This document shows, in pieces, positions 3,241-9,990 of a stretch of DNA of 64,000 nucleotides. The stretch covers positions 1 through 64,000 of IMG/VR virus record IMGVR_UViG_3300032235_000776, one strand, 5' to 3'. Both the position numbers and the translations under genes were made by a program. The first letter of the stretch is position 1; the number at the start of each line of letters is the position of its first letter. Below the pieces are notes generated by a model, which worked only from the letters and a program-made list of their open reading frames with translations, ran no database searches and was not told the origin of the DNA. The stretch is from a virus.

Positions 3241-3730
3241 TGCAGAATTTATTGAGGAGGAAATACATAAGGTAATTGCCTTCTTCAATAGTTTACAAGA
3301 AGGGGATGAGGTAGATTTCTACCTTCATTCTCCAGGAGGATATAATCACGTAATGGAAACAATAAAAAGAATCCTTGAGACTTCTAAGTTTCCCATTACT
3401 CTAATTGCTGCAGGTGAAGTACAATCGGCTGCATTTCTATTGTTTTACTTTTCTAAGTTAAATAAGACTATGCTTCCAAATACTGTGGCCATGCTTCATA
3501 CAATGACTAAAGAGTATGAGGATAGGGACATTCGTCAAAATAGTGATTACTACAAGAAGTCAAAGAAACAATTGGATTCTATGAATGATAGCATAATTAC
3601 TATCCTTGAGACATATAGTGTTTTATCCACTAAGGAAATGCAGGACTACATCAATGGAGAGGATATCTTAGTACTCTCTGATGACCTAGATGCTATCATG
3701 CAAAACTGTCCCTATGGAAATTATTTTTAA
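3218..3730 (+). CDS. ClpP-like serine protease
   Basis: YLHSPGG, VQSAA (catalytic Ser), AMLH (catalytic His). Confidence 0.8.
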   Translation: MKQAYYFDAEFIEEEIHKVIAFFNSLQEGDEVDFYLHSPGGYNHVMETIKRILETSKFPITLIAAGEVQSAAFLLFYFSKLNKTMLPNTVAMLHTMTKEYEDRDIRQNSDYYKKSKKQLDSMNDSIITILETYSVLSTKEMQDYINGEDILVLSDDLDAIMQNCPYGNYF

Positions 3731-3736
3731 AAAAAT

Positions 3737-3767
3737 TTTGGAAATCTAAAATAAAGTGTTATCTTTG
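3737..3767 (+). promoter_or_regulatory. promoter of tRNA operon 1
   Basis: TTTG(3737-40)-N19-TATCTTTG(3760-67), Bacteroidetes primary-sigma consensus. Confidence 0.85.
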
Positions 3768-3775
3768 TATTGTAA

Positions 3776-3850
3776 ATGACAATGAATTTCAATATAGCAA
3801 TTAATAAGGTGTGGGGTGATAGACTCATATCTAGGGGCTATATTATGTAA
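3776..3850 (+). CDS. attenuator leader peptide 1 (MTMNFNIAINKVWGDRLISRGYIM)
   Basis: Near-leaderless ORF; codons 6-16 match array-1 tRNAs; overlaps antiterminator 3829-3839. Confidence 0.85.
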   Translation: MTMNFNIAINKVWGDRLISRGYIM

Positions 3851-3868
3851 TTTACAAGATATTACAAG

Positions 3869-3899
3869 AAGCCTCTAGATAAACTCTAGGGGCTTTTTT
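3869..3899 (+). terminator. attenuator terminator 1
   Basis: AAGCCTCTAGA/TCTAGGGGCTT hairpin plus T-tract; 5' arm can instead pair with ATCTAGGGGCT (3829-3839). Confidence 0.9.
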
Positions 3900-3905
3900 G
3901 TTTTG

Positions 3906-3976
3906 GGGGATAGACACAGGCGAAGTACTTTACATTTGCAATGTAATAGTTTAGGTTTCGATTACCTATATCTCCA
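3906..3976 (+). tRNA. tRNA-Ala(UGC), atypical D arm
   Basis: GGGGATA/TATCTCC-A with G3:U70; anticodon arm TTACA-TTTGCAA-TGTAA. Confidence 0.8.
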
Positions 3977-4030
3977 CAAATACTTTTAAATAATTATTGT
4001 ATTTAAAAGCAAATTTTGTATATTTGTAAT

Positions 4031-4480
4031 ATGAAAAAATGTACAATATGCAAAATTGAAAAGGATGAAGTTAATTTTAATAAGAATAAAACTAGGAAGG
4101 ATGGTATATCAAATGTATGTAAAATTTGCAGCAGAGAAAAATCTTCTACCTACTACAATTCTAATTTAGAAAAACATAGAGAAGAAGTAACTAAAAGAAA
4201 TAACGTACAAAGAGGTTTATTAAAAGATTTTATCAAATCAACGTTAATTACCTCAAAATGTAAAGATTGTGGAAATAAAGATTGGAGAGTTTTAGAATTC
4301 GATCATCTTCCAAATTTTAAAAAAAGAAATGATATTTCATATATGGTTAAAGGAGGGTATAGTTTAGAAAGTATAAAGGATGAAATATCTAAATGTGAAG
4401 TGGTGTGTAGAAATTGTCATTGTATAAGAACAATAGAAAGAAGTGAAAAAGATTATAGAAAAGACTCTTCCGTAGCTTAG
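4031..4480 (+). CDS. HNH-type (homing) endonuclease inserted in tRNA array
   Basis: CxxC pairs, LEFDH, KCEVVCRNCH; own TATATTTG at 4019-4026; stop lies within tRNA-Lys. Confidence 0.8.
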   Translation: MKKCTICKIEKDEVNFNKNKTRKDGISNVCKICSREKSSTYYNSNLEKHREEVTKRNNVQRGLLKDFIKSTLITSKCKDCGNKDWRVLEFDHLPNFKKRNDISYMVKGGYSLESIKDEISKCEVVCRNCHCIRTIERSEKDYRKDSSVA

Positions 4481-4539
4481 TTGGTTAGAGCATTGCACTT
4501 TTAATGCAGAGGTCGGTGGTTCAATTCCACCCGGGAGAA
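4466..4539 (+). tRNA. tRNA-Lys(UUU)
   Basis: TCTTCCG/CGGGAGA; loop CTTTTAA. Confidence 0.95.
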
Positions 4540-4545
4540 CAAAAA

Positions 4546-4617
4546 CCACCTATCGTCCAATGGATAGGACATGGGATTTCTAATCCTTGAATGAGGGTTC
4601 GAGTCCTTCTAGGTGGT
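4546..4617 (+). tRNA. tRNA-Arg(UCU)
   Basis: CCACCTA/TAGGTGG; loop TTTCTAA. Confidence 0.9.
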
Positions 4618-4623
4618 CAATAC

Positions 4624-4692
4624 ACATCCTAGGCTATGGTAGCCAAATGGTCTCCAAAACCATAGGAAATTGTTCGATTCAATTAGGGTGTG
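4624..4692 (+). tRNA. tRNA-Trp(CCA)
   Basis: ACATCCT/AGGGTGT-G; ATGGT-CTCCAAA-ACCAT. Confidence 0.9.
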
Positions 4693-4698
4693 CAAAAT

Positions 4699-4772
4699 TG
4701 TCAATTAGCTCATTTGGTTAGAGCATCACACTGATAATGTGAAGGTGCTAGGTTCGAGTCCTAGATTGACAA
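4699..4772 (+). tRNA. tRNA-Ile(GAU)
   Basis: TGTCAAT/ATTGACA; TCACA-CTGATAA-TGTGA. Confidence 0.95.
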
Positions 4773-4777
4773 CATAT

Positions 4778-4850
4778 TGTGGGGTAGTGCAGCGGCAGCA
4801 TACAGGGCTCATAACCCTAGTGGTCAGGGGTTCGAGTCCCCTCCCCGCAA
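4778..4850 (+). tRNA. tRNA-Met(CAU), initiator-like
   Basis: TGTGGGG/CCCCGCA; three G-C pairs GGG-CTCATAA-CCC in anticodon stem. Confidence 0.85.
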
Positions 4851-4856
4851 CAATAA

Positions 4857-4928
4857 GCAAGTGTAGTATAACGGTTAGTACTCTAGCCTTCCAAGCCTGA
4901 GATGCTGGTTCGATTCCAGTCACTTGCT
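4857..4928 (+). tRNA. tRNA-Gly(UCC)
   Basis: GCAAGTG/CACTTGC-T; loop CTTCCAA. Confidence 0.92.
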
Positions 4929-5045
4929 CAAATGCTCCAGACGTGGAGAACGTAGACAGAAAAGGCCTCTTAATAATGCACACTTTCATCCTAATCGTAG
5001 GTAGGCACAGTTAGTAGATCTGTGGTAATCTTAAAATCTACACTT

Positions 5046-5117
5046 ACTCAAGTAGCTCAGTGGGAGAGCATCTGTTTTACATGCAGAGGGTCGAAGGTTC
5101 AATCCCTTCCTTGAGTA
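5046..5117 (+). tRNA. tRNA-Val(UAC)
   Basis: ACTCAAG/CTTGAGT-A; loop TTTACAT. Confidence 0.93.
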
Positions 5118-5123
5118 CAAAAT

Positions 5124-5197
5124 GGACCTTTAGCTCAATTGGTTAGAGCAACTGACTCATAATCAGAAGGTAGGGAGATCATAACTCTCAAGGTCCA
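5124..5197 (+). tRNA. tRNA(CAU), probably Ile2 (lysidine); elongator Met not excluded
   Basis: GGACCTT/AAGGTCC-A; GA-CTCATAA-TC; Ile2-like body; atypical T loop ATCATAA. Confidence 0.8.
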
Positions 5198-5203
5198 CAA
5201 AAT

Positions 5204-5286
5204 TGTGAGTTCGCATAGAGGCCTAGTGCAGCAGACTGTTAATCTGCCGAAGTAATTCATCATTGGTTCGAATCCAATACTCACAG
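5204..5286 (+). tRNA. tRNA-Asn(GUU) with long variable region
   Basis: TGTGAGT/ACTCACA-G; GCAGA-CTGTTAA-TCTGC. Confidence 0.9.
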
Positions 5287-5291
5287 CAAAT

Positions 5292-5364
5292 GGTCCATAG
5301 GTCAAATGGTTAAGATTTCCCACTGTCTCTGGGTAAGGAACGGGTTCGAATCCCGTATGGACCG
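5292..5364 (+). tRNA. tRNA-Asp(GUC)
   Basis: GGTCCAT/ATGGACC-G; loop CTGTCTC. Confidence 0.9.
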
Positions 5365-5400
5365 CTTTTATTATTCAAATATATGTAGTACCTTTGTAGT

Positions 5401-5676
5401 ATGAAATTAGGATTGGATGATGTATATATAAAGTCAGAAGATTTAGGATTAACAAGTGATATTATTAATCAGTTACATGTACTTGATATAATATCAAATC
5501 CCGAAGGTGAGTTTCTTTATTATCAAGGAGATAATAAATTTTACTATATGTCTTTTAAAAAAAGTGGATACTTAAAAAATCCAGATGGTCCCTGGCATTC
5601 ATTATCCAGTTATAAAAAAATAGATACTAGAACTCCAATAGAAAAAATCAAGCAATGGTTATCTTCTATCTCCTAA
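5401..5676 (+). CDS. hypothetical protein
   Basis: Leaderless ORF after TACCTTTG (5389-5396). Confidence 0.7.
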   Translation: MKLGLDDVYIKSEDLGLTSDIINQLHVLDIISNPEGEFLYYQGDNKFYYMSFKKSGYLKNPDGPWHSLSSYKKIDTRTPIEKIKQWLSSIS

Positions 5677-5734
5677 ACGTAATCTGGATAGTACACCACT
5701 TCCCGAATGATTCAAAAGTAAATTTAATAGAACT

Positions 5735-5914
5735 ATGGAAAAAGTATTTACATATTTAATAAATATTATAAAGAGAAAGAAAATTAAATATAGCACAGGA
5801 CTATGGCATCAATTACACAAAGGAAATGTTATTATATATAATAGTCATCGTAATATTACTAAAAAAGAAGTAGATGAAGTTATTAGTAATTTATTAAATG
5901 GAAAAAATCTTTAG
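5735..5914 (+). CDS. small hypothetical protein (59 aa)
   Basis: MEKVFTYLINIIKRKK...GKNL*; N-terminus similar to next ORF. Confidence 0.5.
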   Translation: MEKVFTYLINIIKRKKIKYSTGLWHQLHKGNVIIYNSHRNITKKEVDEVISNLLNGKNL

Positions 5915-6056
5915 ATATTTAATTAACACAATAAGAAGAGATAGGCCTTCCGGAGTACTTTGGGATTCTTTTTCTAAATCTCAAAAAGAAAATTTTTCAA
6001 AAAAAATCCTGACCCATAAAGAATATATTGATATAAGAGACGGAATATTTGGATAA
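5898..6056 (+). CDS. small hypothetical protein (52 aa)
   Basis: MEKIFRYLINTIRRDR...DGIFG*. Confidence 0.5.
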   Translation: MEKIFRYLINTIRRDRPSGVLWDSFSKSQKENFSKKILTHKEYIDIRDGIFG

Positions 6057-6079
6057 TTAAAAATAAAGTATTATATTTG
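6048..6079 (+). promoter_or_regulatory. promoter of tRNA operon 2
   Basis: TTTG(6048-51)-N20-TATATTTG(6072-79). Confidence 0.85.
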
Positions 6080-6086
6080 TAGTATA

Positions 6087-6140
6087 ATGATGAAGCAATA
6101 TTCATATAGTTCACTCTATTTACCTGATTATTCGGGCTAG
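6087..6140 (+). CDS. attenuator leader peptide 2 (MMKQYSYSSLYLPDYSG)
   Basis: Codons 5-12 are only Tyr/Ser/Leu, matching array 2; TAG stop. Confidence 0.88.
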   Translation: MMKQYSYSSLYLPDYSG

Positions 6141-6165
6141 GAGAGAACTGTATGTAAAAATATAG

Positions 6166-6195
6166 AAACCCTGGCCTAATAAGTCAGGGTTTTTT
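6166..6195 (+). terminator. attenuator terminator 2
   Basis: ACCCTGGC/GTCAGGGT plus T-tract; can instead pair with leader 6123-6141. Confidence 0.9.
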
Positions 6196-6199
6196 ATTT

Positions 6200-6273
6200 A
6201 CCTCTGTGGGCAAACGGTAAAGTCACTGGTCTTAGAAACCAGAGTTTTGGGAGTTCGAATCTCCCCAGGGGTA
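6200..6273 (+). tRNA. tRNA-Leu(UAG), short variable arm
   Basis: ACCTCTG/CAGGGGT-A; CTGGT-CTTAGAA-ACCAG. Confidence 0.9.
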
Positions 6274-6277
6274 CAAT

Positions 6278-6359
6278 GCATCGGTGGTGAAACTGGTAGA
6301 CGCAAGGGACTTAAAATCCCTCGACATATGTCATGTGGGTTCGATTCCCACCCGGTGCA
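6278..6359 (+). tRNA. tRNA-Leu(UAA)
   Basis: GCATCGG/CCGGTGC-A; AGGGA-CTTAAAA-TCCCT; long variable arm. Confidence 0.95.
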
Positions 6360-6364
6360 CAAAT

Positions 6365-6450
6365 AGTAGGTATGCTAGTGGCCTAGCAGTCAGTCTTGAA
6401 AACTGATATACATGGTGAAAATCATGGGGGATCGATACCTCTACCTACTG
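6365..6450 (+). tRNA. tRNA-Ser(UGA)
   Basis: AGTAGGT/ACCTACT-G; TCAGT-CTTGAAA-ACTGA; long variable arm. Confidence 0.88.
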
Positions 6451-6455
6451 CATAT

Positions 6456-6538
6456 AGAAAGTAAACTGAACTGGGTTTAGGCTCCCCTGCTAAGGGATGC
6501 GTAGAGATATCTATTTGGTTCGATTCCAATTCTTTCTG
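6456..6538 (+). tRNA. tRNA-Ser(GCU)
   Basis: AGAAAG/CTTTCT-G; TCCC-CTGCTAA-GGGA; variable arm. Confidence 0.85.
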
Positions 6539-6544
6539 CTATAA

Positions 6545-6625
6545 CCCAACGATGGTAAGGTGGTGAAATCAGAGCACTGTAAATGCTTCGCTTCGGCTAT
6601 TTAGGTTCGATTCCTAACGGTGGGA
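6545..6625 (+). tRNA. tRNA-Tyr(GUA)
   Basis: CCCAACG/CGGTGGG-A; GAGCA-CTGTAAA-TGCTT. Confidence 0.88.
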
Positions 6626-6644
6626 CAAAAAAATTTAAAAAATA

Positions 6645-6675
6645 TTTGACAAATAAATAAAAAGTCATATATTTG
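6645..6675 (+). promoter_or_regulatory. promoter of suppressor-tRNA/Pth unit
   Basis: TTTG(6645-48)-N19-TATATTTG(6668-75). Confidence 0.85.
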
Positions 6676-6686
6676 TAGTGATATAA

Positions 6687-6759
6687 GGACTAATGCTAGT
6701 GGTTAGCAACTTCTCTCTAAAAGAAGCGTCTAAGGGTTCGATTCCCTTTTAGTCCTCCA
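6687..6759 (+). tRNA. amber suppressor tRNA(CUA)
   Basis: GGACTAA/TTAGTCC-T-CCA; CTTCT-CTCTAAA-AGAAG; T arm AAGGG-TTCGATT-CCCTT. Confidence 0.92.
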
Positions 6760-7079
6760 TGGCTTAGATTAAAAAACTCGTAACCGTAACCCGTAGAGAT
6801 TTAACTATCTCTCAACAAGCTGTACAATCTACACATGCAGCTTTAGATTTTGTATTTCAAAATCCCATAACAGCTTTGTTATGGCATCAATCAAATTACC
6901 TTATTCAATTAACCGTAGCTGACGAGGAGGAGTTACTGAATTTAAAAGTCAAACTCTCCGATGTCTCTGTAAAGCATACTGCTTTCAGAGAACCAGATAT
7001 GGACAATCAATTAACTGCTATATGTATAGCACCTGGTAAATTAACAAAGGAAATAACAAAAAAATTTAAATTATTATGA
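6759..7079 (+). CDS. Pth2-like peptidyl-tRNA hydrolase with in-frame TAG at codon 3
   Basis: ATG GCT TAG ATT AAA AAA CTC..., in frame with listed 6876-7079; KLVTVTRRDL..QQAVQSTHAA..FREPD..QLTAICIAP motifs. Confidence 0.82.
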
Positions 7080-7405
7080 TCGCAACTCGCATTATATCCG
7101 CAGAAAATGAAATTTATAATGGTAGACTCATTATAAAATTTGACAGACATAGAATAGTGTTACCTAATAACAACAGTAAAAGAATGTATTTAGGTAAAAG
7201 AAGATACAGAGAATTAATGAATTCAGCAGTAAGTAAAGATATACCTTTAAGATATACTGATGAATATCTATATCATTTACCAAAGAAACTAAAAGAAAGT
7301 ATAGTATTCGATGAACCTGTTAAAGTACAACCTGTTAAAACTCAAGTAGTTACAGAAGAACCTATAAAACAAAAAAGATTTTTTCGATCTTTATTTGGTT
7401 TGTAA
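7076..7405 (+). CDS. hypothetical protein
   Basis: ATGA overlap with Pth2-like gene. Confidence 0.7.
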   Translation: MIATRIISAENEIYNGRLIIKFDRHRIVLPNNNSKRMYLGKRRYRELMNSAVSKDIPLRYTDEYLYHLPKKLKESIVFDEPVKVQPVKTQVVTEEPIKQKRFFRSLFGL

Positions 7406-7425
7406 AAATAAAAGTTGTATATTTG
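7394..7425 (+). promoter_or_regulatory. promoter of tRNA operon 3
   Basis: TTTG(7394-97)-N20-TATATTTG(7418-25). Confidence 0.85.
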
Positions 7426-7429
7426 TAGT

Positions 7430-7504
7430 ATGAAAGTAACATTTACACAGCGTCCAGAGCAACATACCCCATGTTTTACATGGAGTGCTAGGGTCATTGT
7501 GTAA
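7430..7504 (+). CDS. attenuator leader peptide 3 (MKVTFTQRPEQHTPCFTWSARVIV)
   Basis: Codons 4-17 use only, and all of, the 8 amino acids of array 3. Confidence 0.9.
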   Translation: MKVTFTQRPEQHTPCFTWSARVIV

Positions 7505-7532
7505 ATGCATATTCAATATGTCAAAGACTTTG

Positions 7533-7559
7533 AACCCTGGCTAAACACCAGGGTTTTTT
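7533..7559 (+). terminator. attenuator terminator 3
   Basis: AACCCTGG/CCAGGGTT plus T-tract; 5' arm can instead pair with GCTAGGGT (7487-7494). Confidence 0.9.
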
Positions 7560-7566
7560 GTTTTAT

Positions 7567-7639
7567 GCTCGGTTAGTTCACATGGTTAAAACAGTGGGTT
7601 TTCACCCCACAGTAACGAGTTCGATTCTCGTACCGAGTA
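7567..7639 (+). tRNA. tRNA-Glu(UUC)
   Basis: GCTCGGT/ACCGAGT-A; GTGGG-TTTTCAC-CCCAC. Confidence 0.9.
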
Positions 7640-7646
7640 CAAAATT

Positions 7647-7734
7647 CGGGGAGTAGGTCTGTAGTCTGGTAGCAGTCCTGCCTTGGAAGCAGGTGGAGTA
7701 AAATCCCTCGTTGGTTCGAATCCAACCTTCCCGA
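7647..7734 (+). tRNA. tRNA-Pro(UGG) with long variable arm
   Basis: CGGGGAG/CTTCCCG-A; CCTGC-CTTGGAA-GCAGG. Confidence 0.88.
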
Positions 7735-7740
7735 CAATAA

Positions 7741-7812
7741 GTTAGGTTGACTGAATGGTAAGGTCACGGTCTGCAAAACCGCTGTTCGTAGGTTCGATTC
7801 CTACACCTAACT
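7741..7812 (+). tRNA. tRNA-Cys(GCA)
   Basis: GTTAGGT/ACCTAAC-T (U73); loop CTGCAAA. Confidence 0.92.
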
Positions 7813-7816
7813 CTAT

Positions 7817-7891
7817 GGTACATGAGCTAGTCTGGTGATTCAGCGCATGCCTGAAGAGCATGAGAATAAGGTTCGATTCCTTGATGTACCA
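7817..7891 (+). tRNA. tRNA-Phe(GAA)
   Basis: GGTACAT/ATGTACC-A; CATGC-CTGAAGA-GCATG. Confidence 0.9.
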
Positions 7892-7898
7892 CAAATAA

Positions 7899-7972
7899 GC
7901 CTCCAAAGCATAATTGGCTTGATGCACCCGGTTTGTACCCGGGATAACTGGGTTCGACTCCTAGTGGAGGCT
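7899..7972 (+). tRNA. tRNA-Thr(UGU)
   Basis: GCCTCCA/TGGAGGC; CCCGG-TTTGTAC-CCGGG. Confidence 0.92.
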
Positions 7973-7973
7973 C

Positions 7974-8045
7974 TAAGATATAGTTCAGTGAATAGAACAT
8001 CTCCCTACGAAGGAGAAGACATAGGTTTGAATCCTATTATCTTAT
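7974..8045 (+). tRNA. tRNA-Arg(ACG)
   Basis: TAAGATA/TATCTTA; TCTCC-CTACGAA-GGAGA; encoded CCA 8046-48. Confidence 0.9.
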
Positions 8046-8047
8046 CC

Positions 8048-8120
8048 ACTCCGGTCTTCTAATCGGCAGGAAATCTAACTTTGAATTAGATAATAGTAGG
8101 TTCGAATCCTCTCTGGAGTA
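8048..8120 (+). tRNA. tRNA-Gln(UUG)
   Basis: ACTCCGG/CTGGAGT-A; TCTAA-CTTTGAA-TTAGA. Confidence 0.88.
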
Positions 8121-8126
8121 CAATAT

Positions 8127-8198
8127 GGTGTTTGAAGCATTAAGGTGATGCGCTTTCTTGTGACGAAAGAGAATACGGCTCAATACCGTACTAACACC
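8127..8198 (+). tRNA. tRNA-His(GUG)
   Basis: G-1:C73; CTTTC-TTGTGAC-GAAAG. Confidence 0.88.
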
Positions 8199-8262
8199 CT
8201 AATCCATATTCCAATCTATCATAAGTAGGATTATTCCTACTATAATACCAACAATAAATCCT

Positions 8263-9990
8263 TTAATTATTAAGGCTTCCATTAATTAAATTATTAAGTA
8301 ATTCTCTATCTTCTGCTGCTTTATACCAACCTTTTTCATAGAGAGCATCCATTTGACCACCTCTTGAAAAGTGATTGTGAATTGTTTTAGTATTCTCTAC
8401 AATTGCAGCTAAACCCTTGCTTCTCATTTGATGCCATAACCAATTGTCACAACCTACGTGATGGAAGCGAGTATCAAAGATTTCTCCATTTGATAAATAA
8501 TCAATTGCACTTCTTTTGATCATGAAGTGTTCGCACTCTTGTACACCGGTGTTAAAGATAAGTAACTCATAACCAACCTTTTGTGATTTAATTACTGCTT
8601 TGATAAAGTCATCTGCATGGAATACTACATCACTTGCAGCAAAGCAAATAAAGTATCCATTACTTTCTTGTACTCCAATTTTTACTTTTTCCGGCACAGT
8701 TTCATCTCCTTCAATAGTATGAATAGAAATTAACTCCTGAGGATAGTTTTGTTTTGCAATGGAAGCCAGGCATTTATCCAATCCTTCATCTCTATAACCC
8801 ACTACATGAGGGATAATAACAGAGATAGTTGGTAATCCATTGTAAAATCTAAAGTCTCTTAGATAATCCGAGTTATTTGGTTGGTATTCTAAGCACTTAT
8901 TAAGGTGCTCCTTAGCTTCATTAATCATTCCCATAAAGCCATATGCAACATATAGTATTCTATGAGGCTCGTCAGTGTAATGACTCATGTTATTTGCATA
9001 ATAATTATTATATGGAATCTCTAAAGCAGCTTTAGCATATGCTACAGCCTGTAAAAGTCTATTATTAAGTAAGTAAAAATTAGCAAATTCAATGTAAGGT
9101 TCTCTTCTTGAGCCATCAGTGTAGATAGATTGGTTATAGTAATCAACCTGTTTATCCGGCATATTGAGAAATCCATAGCATCTACCTATAAAAATCATGC
9201 TTTGAGCATTTTCCATAGGCATTTTACCCATCGTAAGATGTCTTTTTAACTCTCTAATAGCACTTCTATATCTACCGGTAAACATTAATTCTCTACCAAA
9301 GTAGTGAGAGTTACGATCATTCTCAGGATTAAGGTAAGTATCAATTGCAAGACCTCTTAAGTAATGAGATCTGTTAGTTTCTGGGTTTTGAAAGTGCTCT
9401 AACTTGATTACATCCTCTCCAACATACTGTCTTTTTGCATCTCCCTGTAAAACTTCATGAATTACACCTACCCATTTTAAGCATCTTCTATCATATGCCT
9501 TAGAATGCAGGAATTGAATTGCTGGAGATCCATCAGGAAGGTGACTAAATACAAAATTATACTCCAATTGTTGGATATTATCATCAATTAATTTAGAAAT
9601 TAGATCAATATTAAAGGAAGTAAAGATTTCATCACAATCAGGAGTAAAAATAAAGTCTGTATTGGAGAATGTTGCAATGTAATTCCTTGCAGATGAGTAG
9701 TCAAACTGTCTATCTCCTTCTTTAATTACGTTTGCATCTCCATCTACTACATATTTTTCATTAATTTTGGAAGAAAGCTCTTCATCAACCTTAATAAGGA
9801 ACTTATCTCCTACTGTAATGACATTTGCTCCCCAATTTTTAGCTACTTCCACTGTATTATCAGTAGATCCAGTGTCAAGAATATGTACTTCTCCTCCTCT
9901 GGCTTTAAATTCATCCAGGGATTTTAATAATCTTGGTAGAGTCTTAGACTCATTCCTTGCAATTAGGCAAAATGAAAAATTCATGCACAA
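8263..9990 (-). CDS. GT2 glycosyltransferase-TPR-GT2 fusion
   Basis: LIARNE, DTGSTDNT, SARN, DCDE, IHE motifs; TPR-like middle; second ISVIIP GT2 domain. Confidence 0.9.
   Translation of the reverse strand: MCMNFSFCLIARNESKTLPRLLKSLDEFKARGGEVHILDTGSTDNTVEVAKNWGANVITVGDKFLIKVDEELSSKINEKYVVDGDANVIKEGDRQFDYSSARNYIATFSNTDFIFTPDCDEIFTSFNIDLISKLIDDNIQQLEYNFVFSHLPDGSPAIQFLHSKAYDRRCLKWVGVIHEVLQGDAKRQYVGEDVIKLEHFQNPETNRSHYLRGLAIDTYLNPENDRNSHYFGRELMFTGRYRSAIRELKRHLTMGKMPMENAQSMIFIGRCYGFLNMPDKQVDYYNQSIYTDGSRREPYIEFANFYLLNNRLLQAVAYAKAALEIPYNNYYANNMSHYTDEPHRILYVAYGFMGMINEAKEHLNKCLEYQPNNSDYLRDFRFYNGLPTISVIIPHVVGYRDEGLDKCLASIAKQNYPQELISIHTIEGDETVPEKVKIGVQESNGYFICFAASDVVFHADDFIKAVIKSQKVGYELLIFNTGVQECEHFMIKRSAIDYLSNGEIFDTRFHHVGCDNWLWHQMRSKGLAAIVENTKTIHNHFSRGGQMDALYEKGWYKAAEDRELLNNLINGSLNN

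Follow-up and report, generated by a model that had tools for sequence, protein, structure and literature searches.

Multivalent leader peptides precede the ilvGMEDA (Ile/Leu/Val) and thr (Thr/Ile) operons, the trp attenuator provides the four-region scheme of alternative helices, and a modelling study of classical attenuators links sensitivity to the regulatory codons (PMC1183508). T-box riboswitches likewise couple tRNA status to terminator read-through via an antiterminator. For tRNA arrays, the nearest published functional parallel to the locus described here is the trn operon of Anabaena sp. PCC 7120, an accessory array which is silent by default and induced by impaired translation elongation (PMC8421152, PMC10272220). 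Here we analyze leader 1, a short open reading frame (ORF) followed by a terminator in front of a tRNA gene array, in the phage-derived IMG/VR virus record IMGVR_UViG_3300032235_000776. The stretch analyzed, called the window below, comprises the first 64 kb of this 91,958-bp record. A full-text search of open-access papers and preprints revealed no published account of leader-peptide control of tRNA genes.

Our analysis suggests, with a probability of roughly 0.75, that leader 1 is a ribosome-mediated transcription attenuator of the trp/ilv type gating the tRNA genes behind it. This reading is based on sequence architecture, statistics, alternative folds and the tracking of leaders and arrays across phages, from which we infer translation of the ORF, ribosome stalling, coupling to the RNA polymerase and the physiological trigger. 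According to this reading, the array tRNAs are probably produced by the phage only when they become scarce for the ribosomes.

Leader 1 lists the tRNAs of its array

Three blocks of tRNA genes are located on the plus strand between positions 3737 and 8199, and the same type of cassette is found before each of them. It consists of a Bacteroidota-type promoter (TTTG, about 19 nt, TAnnTTTG), an ATG 4-8 nt past the -7 box, a short ORF and a strong intrinsic terminator, right behind which the first tRNA gene begins. In array 1, ten tRNAs were detected by ARAGORN and Rfam at 4466-5365 (Lys, Arg(TCT), Trp, Ile(GAT), CAT, Gly(TCC), Val(TAC), CAT, Asn, Asp), and tRNA-Ala was found by relaxed ARAGORN and a focused Infernal search.

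Codons 6-16 of leader 1 read AAT ATA GCA ATT AAT AAG GTG TGG GGT GAT AGA, exactly as originally stated. All of them are codons of the own array, and they name 10 of the 11 downstream tRNAs. The prediction that the leader lists the whole of array 1 stands for these ten, and its entry for the eleventh tRNA, Met, is trivially the start codon. In Monte Carlo simulations with the codon usage of the genome, a run of at least 11 own-array codons naming at least ten tRNAs had P = 4.4e-5. The sister leaders match their own arrays with P = 3.5e-6 (leader 2) and P below 5e-7 (leader 3). The statistics of leader 1 are the weakest of the three because the amino acids of array 1 account for 52% of the codon usage. 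In a ranking of every ATG ORF with 12-45 codons in six frames (711 in the genome), each leader took first place for its own array, far ahead of the others.

Jointly, the three lists comprise all 20 amino acids and partition the code exactly as the arrays do. The match extends to split boxes: AGA precedes Arg(TCT) and CGT precedes Arg(ACG), with all CGN codons together making up 0.3% of the genome codons. Both Ser and both Leu boxes are listed where two Ser and two Leu tRNAs follow, and ATA and ATT are listed before the CAU and GAU tRNAs. Chance is excluded as the source of this match between lists and arrays.

Alternative folding of the leader transcript

The terminator of leader 1 (3866-3904) has a 10-bp stem, or 14 pairs if extended, followed by the T tract, and lies directly before tRNA-Ala. 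As originally predicted, an antiterminator sequence in the ORF tail repeats its 3' arm: the copy at 3830-3839 is exact over 10 nt, and 3829-3839 can pair with 3870-3880 over 11 bp including one G:U. The calculated duplex energies are -17.5 kcal/mol for the antiterminator and -19.6 kcal/mol for the terminator, and region 2 is the best partner of the terminator 5' arm (z = -4.8 against shuffles). The full leader is predicted to fold into a 1:2 hairpin (3791-3815 with 3824-3844) plus the terminator (z = -5.4), and when the terminator 3' arm was removed, the fold became the 2:3 antiterminator.

In an equilibrium model, we placed a masked ribosome footprint on one A-site codon after another and calculated how probable the terminator helix is in each case. 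The modelled probability was 0.97 without ribosome, 0.03-0.3 for A-site codons 8-14 or 8-15, depending on the assumed 3' edge of the footprint, and again 0.97 from codon 16 onward, stop codon included. In silico, terminator and antiterminator are thus mutually exclusive, and masked folding predicts read-through only for stalls within the list. Leaders 2 and 3 are predicted to switch likewise, their sensitive codons being 3/5-12/13 and 5/6-15/16 compared to lists at codons 5-12 and 4-17. Across the three leaders, own-array codons are present at 26 of the 28 stall-sensitive positions, but at only 16 of the 34 others (Fisher P = 1.1e-4), indicating that foreign codons are excluded precisely where stalling would open the switch. 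For 7 of the 8 examined leaders, the terminator 5' arm finds its strongest partner in the ORF tail, just past the list.

Table 1. Features of the leader 1 unit, its tRNA array and the sister units (positions in the window)
Feature	Position	Strand	Details
Promoter of leader 1, Bacteroidota-type	3737-3767	+	-33 element TTTG 3737-3740, 19-nt spacer, -7 box TATCTTTG 3760-3767
Leader ORF 1	3776-3850	+	24 codons, ATG at 3776, TAA 3848-3850
Codon list, codons 6-16	3791-3823	+	Asn, Ile(ATA), Ala, Ile(ATT), Asn, Lys, Val, Trp, Gly, Asp, Arg(AGA)
Region 1, 5' half of 1:2 hairpin	3791-3815	+	predicted to pair with 3824-3844 without ribosome; minimum-free-energy folds
Region 2, putative antiterminator arm (core 3829-3839)	3828-3840	+	in codons 18-22; holds exact copy of terminator 3' arm, 3830-3839
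Region 3, terminator 5' arm (core 3870-3879)	3866-3880	+	core pairs with 3885-3894
Region 4, terminator 3' arm and T tract	3885-3904	+	3' arm 3885-3894, T tract 3895-3904
tRNA-Ala(TGC), reduced D arm	3906-3976	+	focused Infernal search 33.6 bits, E = 1.3e-5; 1 nt after T tract
Inserted HNH homing-endonuclease gene	4019-4480	+	phrog_2255, E = 1.3e-28; ATG 4031, own -7 box TATATTTG 4019-4026
tRNAs Lys(TTT), Arg(TCT), Trp(CCA), Ile(GAT), initiator-like Met(CAT, 4778-4851), Gly(TCC)	4466-4929	+	ARAGORN, Rfam
tRNAs Val(TAC), Ile2-type CAT (5124-5198), Asn(GTT), Asp(GTC)	5046-5365	+	ARAGORN, Rfam
Sister unit 2	6087-6193	+	leader ORF 6087-6140, terminator 6165-6193; precedes Leu, Leu, Ser, Ser, Tyr
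Sister unit 3	7430-7556	+	leader ORF 7430-7504, terminator 7532-7556; precedes Glu, Pro, Cys, Phe, Thr, Arg(ACG), Gln, His

Leaders and arrays in other phages

Close relatives are rare. A single IMG/VR contig of 107.9 kb (loci L002, L005 and L025) was found, in which all three units are present. Its leader 3 names the same eight amino acids as leader 3 of the window, in another order and with no sequence similarity. Its leader 1 can be aligned with leader 1 of the window, and the single G-to-A exchange in region 2 is accompanied by the same change in region 4 and by a compensating one in region 3.

In a further locus (L026), the array comprises Ser, His, Trp, Ile, Met, Asn, Arg, Arg and Ser, and the leader is a 17-codon run of these amino acids only, including both Arg and both Ser boxes. 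A 328-kb phage (L036) has an array of Cys, Ile, Ser, Phe, Gly, Ile(TAT) and Asn, which its leader matches. Two units were found in the cultured Cellulophaga phage phi17:2 (NC_021798.1). The leader of unit A (87518-87586) matches an array of Pro, Glu, Gln, His, Leu, Leu and Arg(ACG). Unit B has Ala first, followed by Lys, Ile, Gly, Met, Asp, Thr, Val, Arg(TCT), Met and Tyr, and its leader includes Thr and Tyr and omits Trp and Asn, differing from leader 1 exactly as the two arrays differ. The leaders of these four other phages (L002, L026, L036, phi17:2) follow differently grouped arrays. When ten leaders were compared with ten arrays in a 10 x 10 matrix, the own array was best for 9 of them, leader 1 of L002 being the sole discordant row, and the observed matrix sum was reached by the identity permutation only (1/5040).

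The annotated phi17:2 gene gp077 (NC_021798.1, 88442-88561) corresponds to the codon-matched leader that precedes the Ala-first block; this leader (88478-88561) probably starts with GTG. The phi17:2 gene gp078 (90383-90484) was considered as a third leader and rejected; it overlies a tRNA-Ser(TGA) that ARAGORN found at a relaxed threshold.

Other searches for relatives gave little. Megablast of 3700-8200 against phage records yielded no match, and a distant blastn search of the same region against phage records yielded tRNA-sized matches only. No relatives were found with the PhoH-like neighbour as query and no useful ones with the glycosyltransferase neighbour. A degenerate pattern of the leader 2 core retrieved from IMG/VR only the L002 contig and chance matches, and the conserved tail motif of leader 1 gave 13 matches in metagenome contigs, all by chance.

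Proposed mechanism

In the attenuator model that we favor, host RNA polymerase would start at the Bacteroidota-type promoter and a ribosome would begin the 24-codon ORF on an mRNA that is presumably leaderless or nearly so, since the ATG lies only 8 nt past the -7 box. If all codons are decoded promptly, the ribosome would pass codons 17-24 and the stop codon and cover the antiterminator arm 3828-3840; with the arm covered, the terminator 3870-3904 would form and transcription would end 1 nt before tRNA-Ala. If the ribosome has to wait for any one of the array-encoded aminoacyl-tRNAs, it would hold region 1 (3791-3815) and leave region 2 free, which could then pair with the terminator 5' arm, so that the polymerase would read into tRNA-Ala and the genes behind it. 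Without any translation, the 1:2 hairpin and the terminator would both form and the switch would be off. The result would be a negative feedback, in which slow decoding of the listed codons causes the phage tRNAs to be made and their accumulation closes the switch again. The likely trigger would be a shortage of host tRNAs during infection, and their cleavage or degradation could slow decoding as well.

A wider role is possible, although we consider it doubtful: the three attenuators, the 24 tRNAs and a suppressor tRNA may form a self-contained tRNA-homeostasis and counter-defence circuit that monitors every codon class through the three ORFs and replaces depleted host tRNAs, drawing on a complete minimal decoding set of the phage. 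Such depletion might be caused e.g., by anticodon nucleases or infection-induced tRNA decay.

Evidence against the attenuator and alternative explanations

Several observations weigh against attenuation by leader 1. Each tRNA is tested by only one or two codons, and attenuator sensitivity increases with runs of regulatory codons. A ribosome stalled at codons 6-7 or 16 should, according to the model, allow termination, and GGT is a non-standard partner of the anticodon UCC and needs U:U superwobble for its decoding. In the L002 relative, leader 1 lists Val, Gly, Ile, Trp and Arg, and the array retains only Ala, Asp, Lys and Asn. The equilibrium model shows no switching for the L026 leader or for leaders A and B of phi17:2, and a related jumbo-phage contig (behind L027), which carries 40 tRNAs arranged by isoacceptor and many endonuclease genes, has no codon-matched leaders. 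Finally, the tRNAs from Lys to Asp may also be transcribed without passing the attenuator.

This possible bypass of ten tRNAs is indicated because the HNH gene, which lies between tRNA-Ala and the other ten tRNA genes and overlaps the start of tRNA-Lys, has a promoter-like box of its own. An ATTG is located 19 nt upstream and the ATG 4 nt downstream of this box, a spacing as at leader 3. The identity of the HNH gene is firm, and the L002 relative, which has no HNH gene at this position, carries inside the array a LAGLIDADG-like gene that has a box of its own, an eroded array standing under a full-length list. The attenuator could accordingly be real and now control essentially only tRNA-Ala, with the HNH promoter driving Lys to Asp constitutively and the list being in part a relic of an uninterrupted array. 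We regard this as unlikely: the list is still pure, complete and within the stall-sensitive window, which argues for ongoing selection, and read-through transcripts would still contribute to the expression of the ten tRNAs.

Another explanation would be that the unit senses general translation capacity, i.e., ribosome availability or coupling, with the codon match being secondary. Any slow ribosome in codons 8-15 would yield read-through in the model, and single codons are weak specific sensors. General-capacity sensing fails, however, to explain why three leaders partition the 20 amino acids exactly like the arrays, why the rare CGT occurs solely before Arg(ACG), why foreign codons are excluded from the sensitive window, and why leaders of other phages follow their arrays. 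It is thus improbable.

Still less credit is due to direct RNA sensing without translation, in which base pairing of the listed codons with free tRNA anticodons would act like a T-box specifier. Such sensing would suit a unit that regulates tRNA supply, and tRNAs are indeed read by T-box elements, but Rfam gave no T-box match in 3700-8300 even at E <= 10, and the triplets are everywhere in frame between start and stop, with the frame being kept across phages and the sequence not. To our knowledge, eleven adjacent specifiers have no precedent. The last alternative, an ordinary terminator of the upstream PhoH/ClpP-like genes next to an accidental short ORF, has a negligible probability and was dismissed on statistical grounds: for array 1 alone, given its 52% share, long own-array runs are no great rarity, but P is 4.4e-5 once coverage is included, leader 1 ranks first of 711, the pattern recurs in two sister units and four other phages, and there is a promoter between the stop codon of the ClpP-like gene and the leader ATG.

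With respect to the L002 insertion, the LAGLIDADG-like endonuclease gene lies inside the array-1 equivalent (L002:3080-3560). Directly behind it, a tRNA 3' half was observed, suggesting insertion into, or an intron in, a tRNA gene.

tRNA genes of the arrays

The tRNA-Ala gene was absent from the default ARAGORN and Rfam runs over the whole window. ARAGORN recovered it at an 85% threshold (3905-3977), and its Infernal score can be compared to a gathering score of 29 bits for the tRNA covariance model. As read from the sequence, it carries G3:U70 and A73, as expected for an alanine tRNA, and the L002 relative has a tRNA-Ala at the equivalent place. On the plus strand, relaxed ARAGORN added only Ala, Ser(GCT) and His, exactly the three tRNAs required by the lists and lacking in the default run.

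The second CAU tRNA (5124-5198) had been predicted to be Ile2. Its acceptor stem pairs GGACCTT with AAGGTCC, giving A3-T70, C4-G69 and C5-G68. According to Silva et al., A3 or T70 rules out Met and fMet, and C4-G69 together with C5-G68 is typical of tRNA-Ile(CAT) (PMC1635315); as criterion against Met and fMet, we used A3 or G3 together with T70 or C70 (PMC1635315). The match of the acceptor stem to these published discriminators supports the assignment to the Ile2 type directly and independently of the ATA codon of the leader. Overall similarity to Ile(GAT) was also considered as a clue to identity and discarded as uninformative, as it amounted to 65%, equal to that with Lys. The T loop of this tRNA is ATCATAA, in which A54 and T58 replace the usual T54 and A58.

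Published features of initiator tRNAs are G29-G31 with C39-C41, a mismatch or weak pair at 1:72, and A11-U24 (PMC1635315), a weak U1-A72 pair being found in a minority of initiators. The other CAT tRNA (4778-4851) has the G29-G31/C39-C41 pairs by the anticodon loop and a weak U1-A72 pair; its 11-24 pair is T-A, not A-T.

Altogether, 24 tRNAs and a CTA suppressor are encoded between 3906 and 8199. Counting Ile2, they form a complete minimal decoding set with one U34 tRNA per four-codon box and with both boxes served for Arg, Leu, Ser and Ile. A set of the same size, 25 tRNA isotypes, is quoted for the apicoplast (PMC12069591).

In array 1, the 116-nt spacer between Gly and Val (4930-5045) contained no tRNA even at a very low ARAGORN threshold; the remains of a tRNA or a small RNA may lie there. 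Two tRNAs are unusually long, namely tRNA-Asn (5204-5287, 84 nt) and tRNA-Pro (7647-7735, 89 nt), with apparent long variable arms that are abnormal for these isoacceptors.

Other features of the region and the phage

The pattern TTTG-N17-21-TAnnTTTG occurs 13 times compared to 4.1 expected occurrences. On the plus strand of the tRNA region there are four matches, which belong to the three leaders and the suppressor tRNA. The latter, an amber suppressor tRNA(CTA) at 6687-6759 (region 6645-7079), has its own promoter, no leader and no terminator, and runs directly into a Pth2-like gene (PF01981, E = 2.8e-7) with TAG at codon 3. Among the 71 IMG/VR loci fetched with the Pth2-like protein, tRNA(CTA) adjoins the Pth2-like gene in many. 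Leader 2 itself ends with TAG (6138-6179 region). If this codon were suppressed, the frame would continue to a TAA at 6177-6179 in the terminator loop and the ribosome would cover the terminator 5' arm. The leader-3-like ORF of L002 is also terminated by TAG.

Genes for the terminase, the portal and the major head protein are present in the window. The source phage is, as judged from its sequence, a distant crAss-like relative, because the nearest named relatives of the portal are those of Leptolyngbya phage Lbo-JY46 (30%), a crAss-like epsilon phage (28%) and the Cellulophaga phages phi17:2 and phi4:1 (25%).

Implications

If the attenuator model is correct, phage tRNA supply would be driven by demand and read out by the ribosome itself, which would give a concrete and testable answer to the questions of why such tRNAs are carried and how they are controlled. 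Attenuation by leader peptides would then reach beyond amino-acid metabolism to the tRNA pool, and a leader would check about ten amino acids instead of one to three. The unit could then act as a natural multi-input sensor of decoding speed. Leaders can also serve as predictors: they pointed to three tRNAs missed by standard detectors, and ATA and ATT in leader 1 fit the Ile2 call for the ambiguous CAU tRNA, the call itself resting on the acceptor-stem discriminators. The same design in the cultured phage phi17:2 offers a laboratory system, with Cellulophaga baltica as the bacterium.

Comparison with known systems

The classical systems closest in architecture are the multivalent ilv and thr leaders. 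Like these and the four-region trp attenuator, leader 1 has a short ORF with regulatory codons. As in trp-type attenuators, the 1:2, 2:3 and 3:4 helices are predicted to be exclusive, with an intrinsic terminator before the regulated genes, and the model predicts that a ribosome at the stop codon masks region 2 and that lack of translation leads to termination. The best non-tRNA matches in Rfam were the trpB motif (RF04312) and Thr_leader (RF00506), the aligned parts being the long 1:2 hairpin and the terminator. Their scores of 32.3 bits (gathering score 59) and 23.8 bits (gathering score 55), respectively, place leader 1 in neither family and reflect an architectural resemblance only.

T-boxes differ from leader 1 in that they bind uncharged tRNA without a ribosome, use a single specifier codon and control synthetase or amino-acid genes. 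The trn operon of Anabaena shares with the phage locus homing endonucleases adjoining the arrays, but is controlled by promoter repression through the ribbon-helix-helix protein TrcR; attenuation is mentioned in neither of the two papers, and the 2021 paper mentions no leader or terminator (PMC8421152, PMC10272220). Compared to the ilv, thr and trp attenuators, the genes putatively gated by leader 1 are tRNA genes and a homing-endonuclease gene instead of those for amino-acid biosynthesis enzymes, and up to 11 tRNAs are each listed once or twice in place of runs of one to three amino acids. In further contrast to them, the system is phage-borne, has Bacteroidota-type promoters and comprises three parallel units that cover the whole code.

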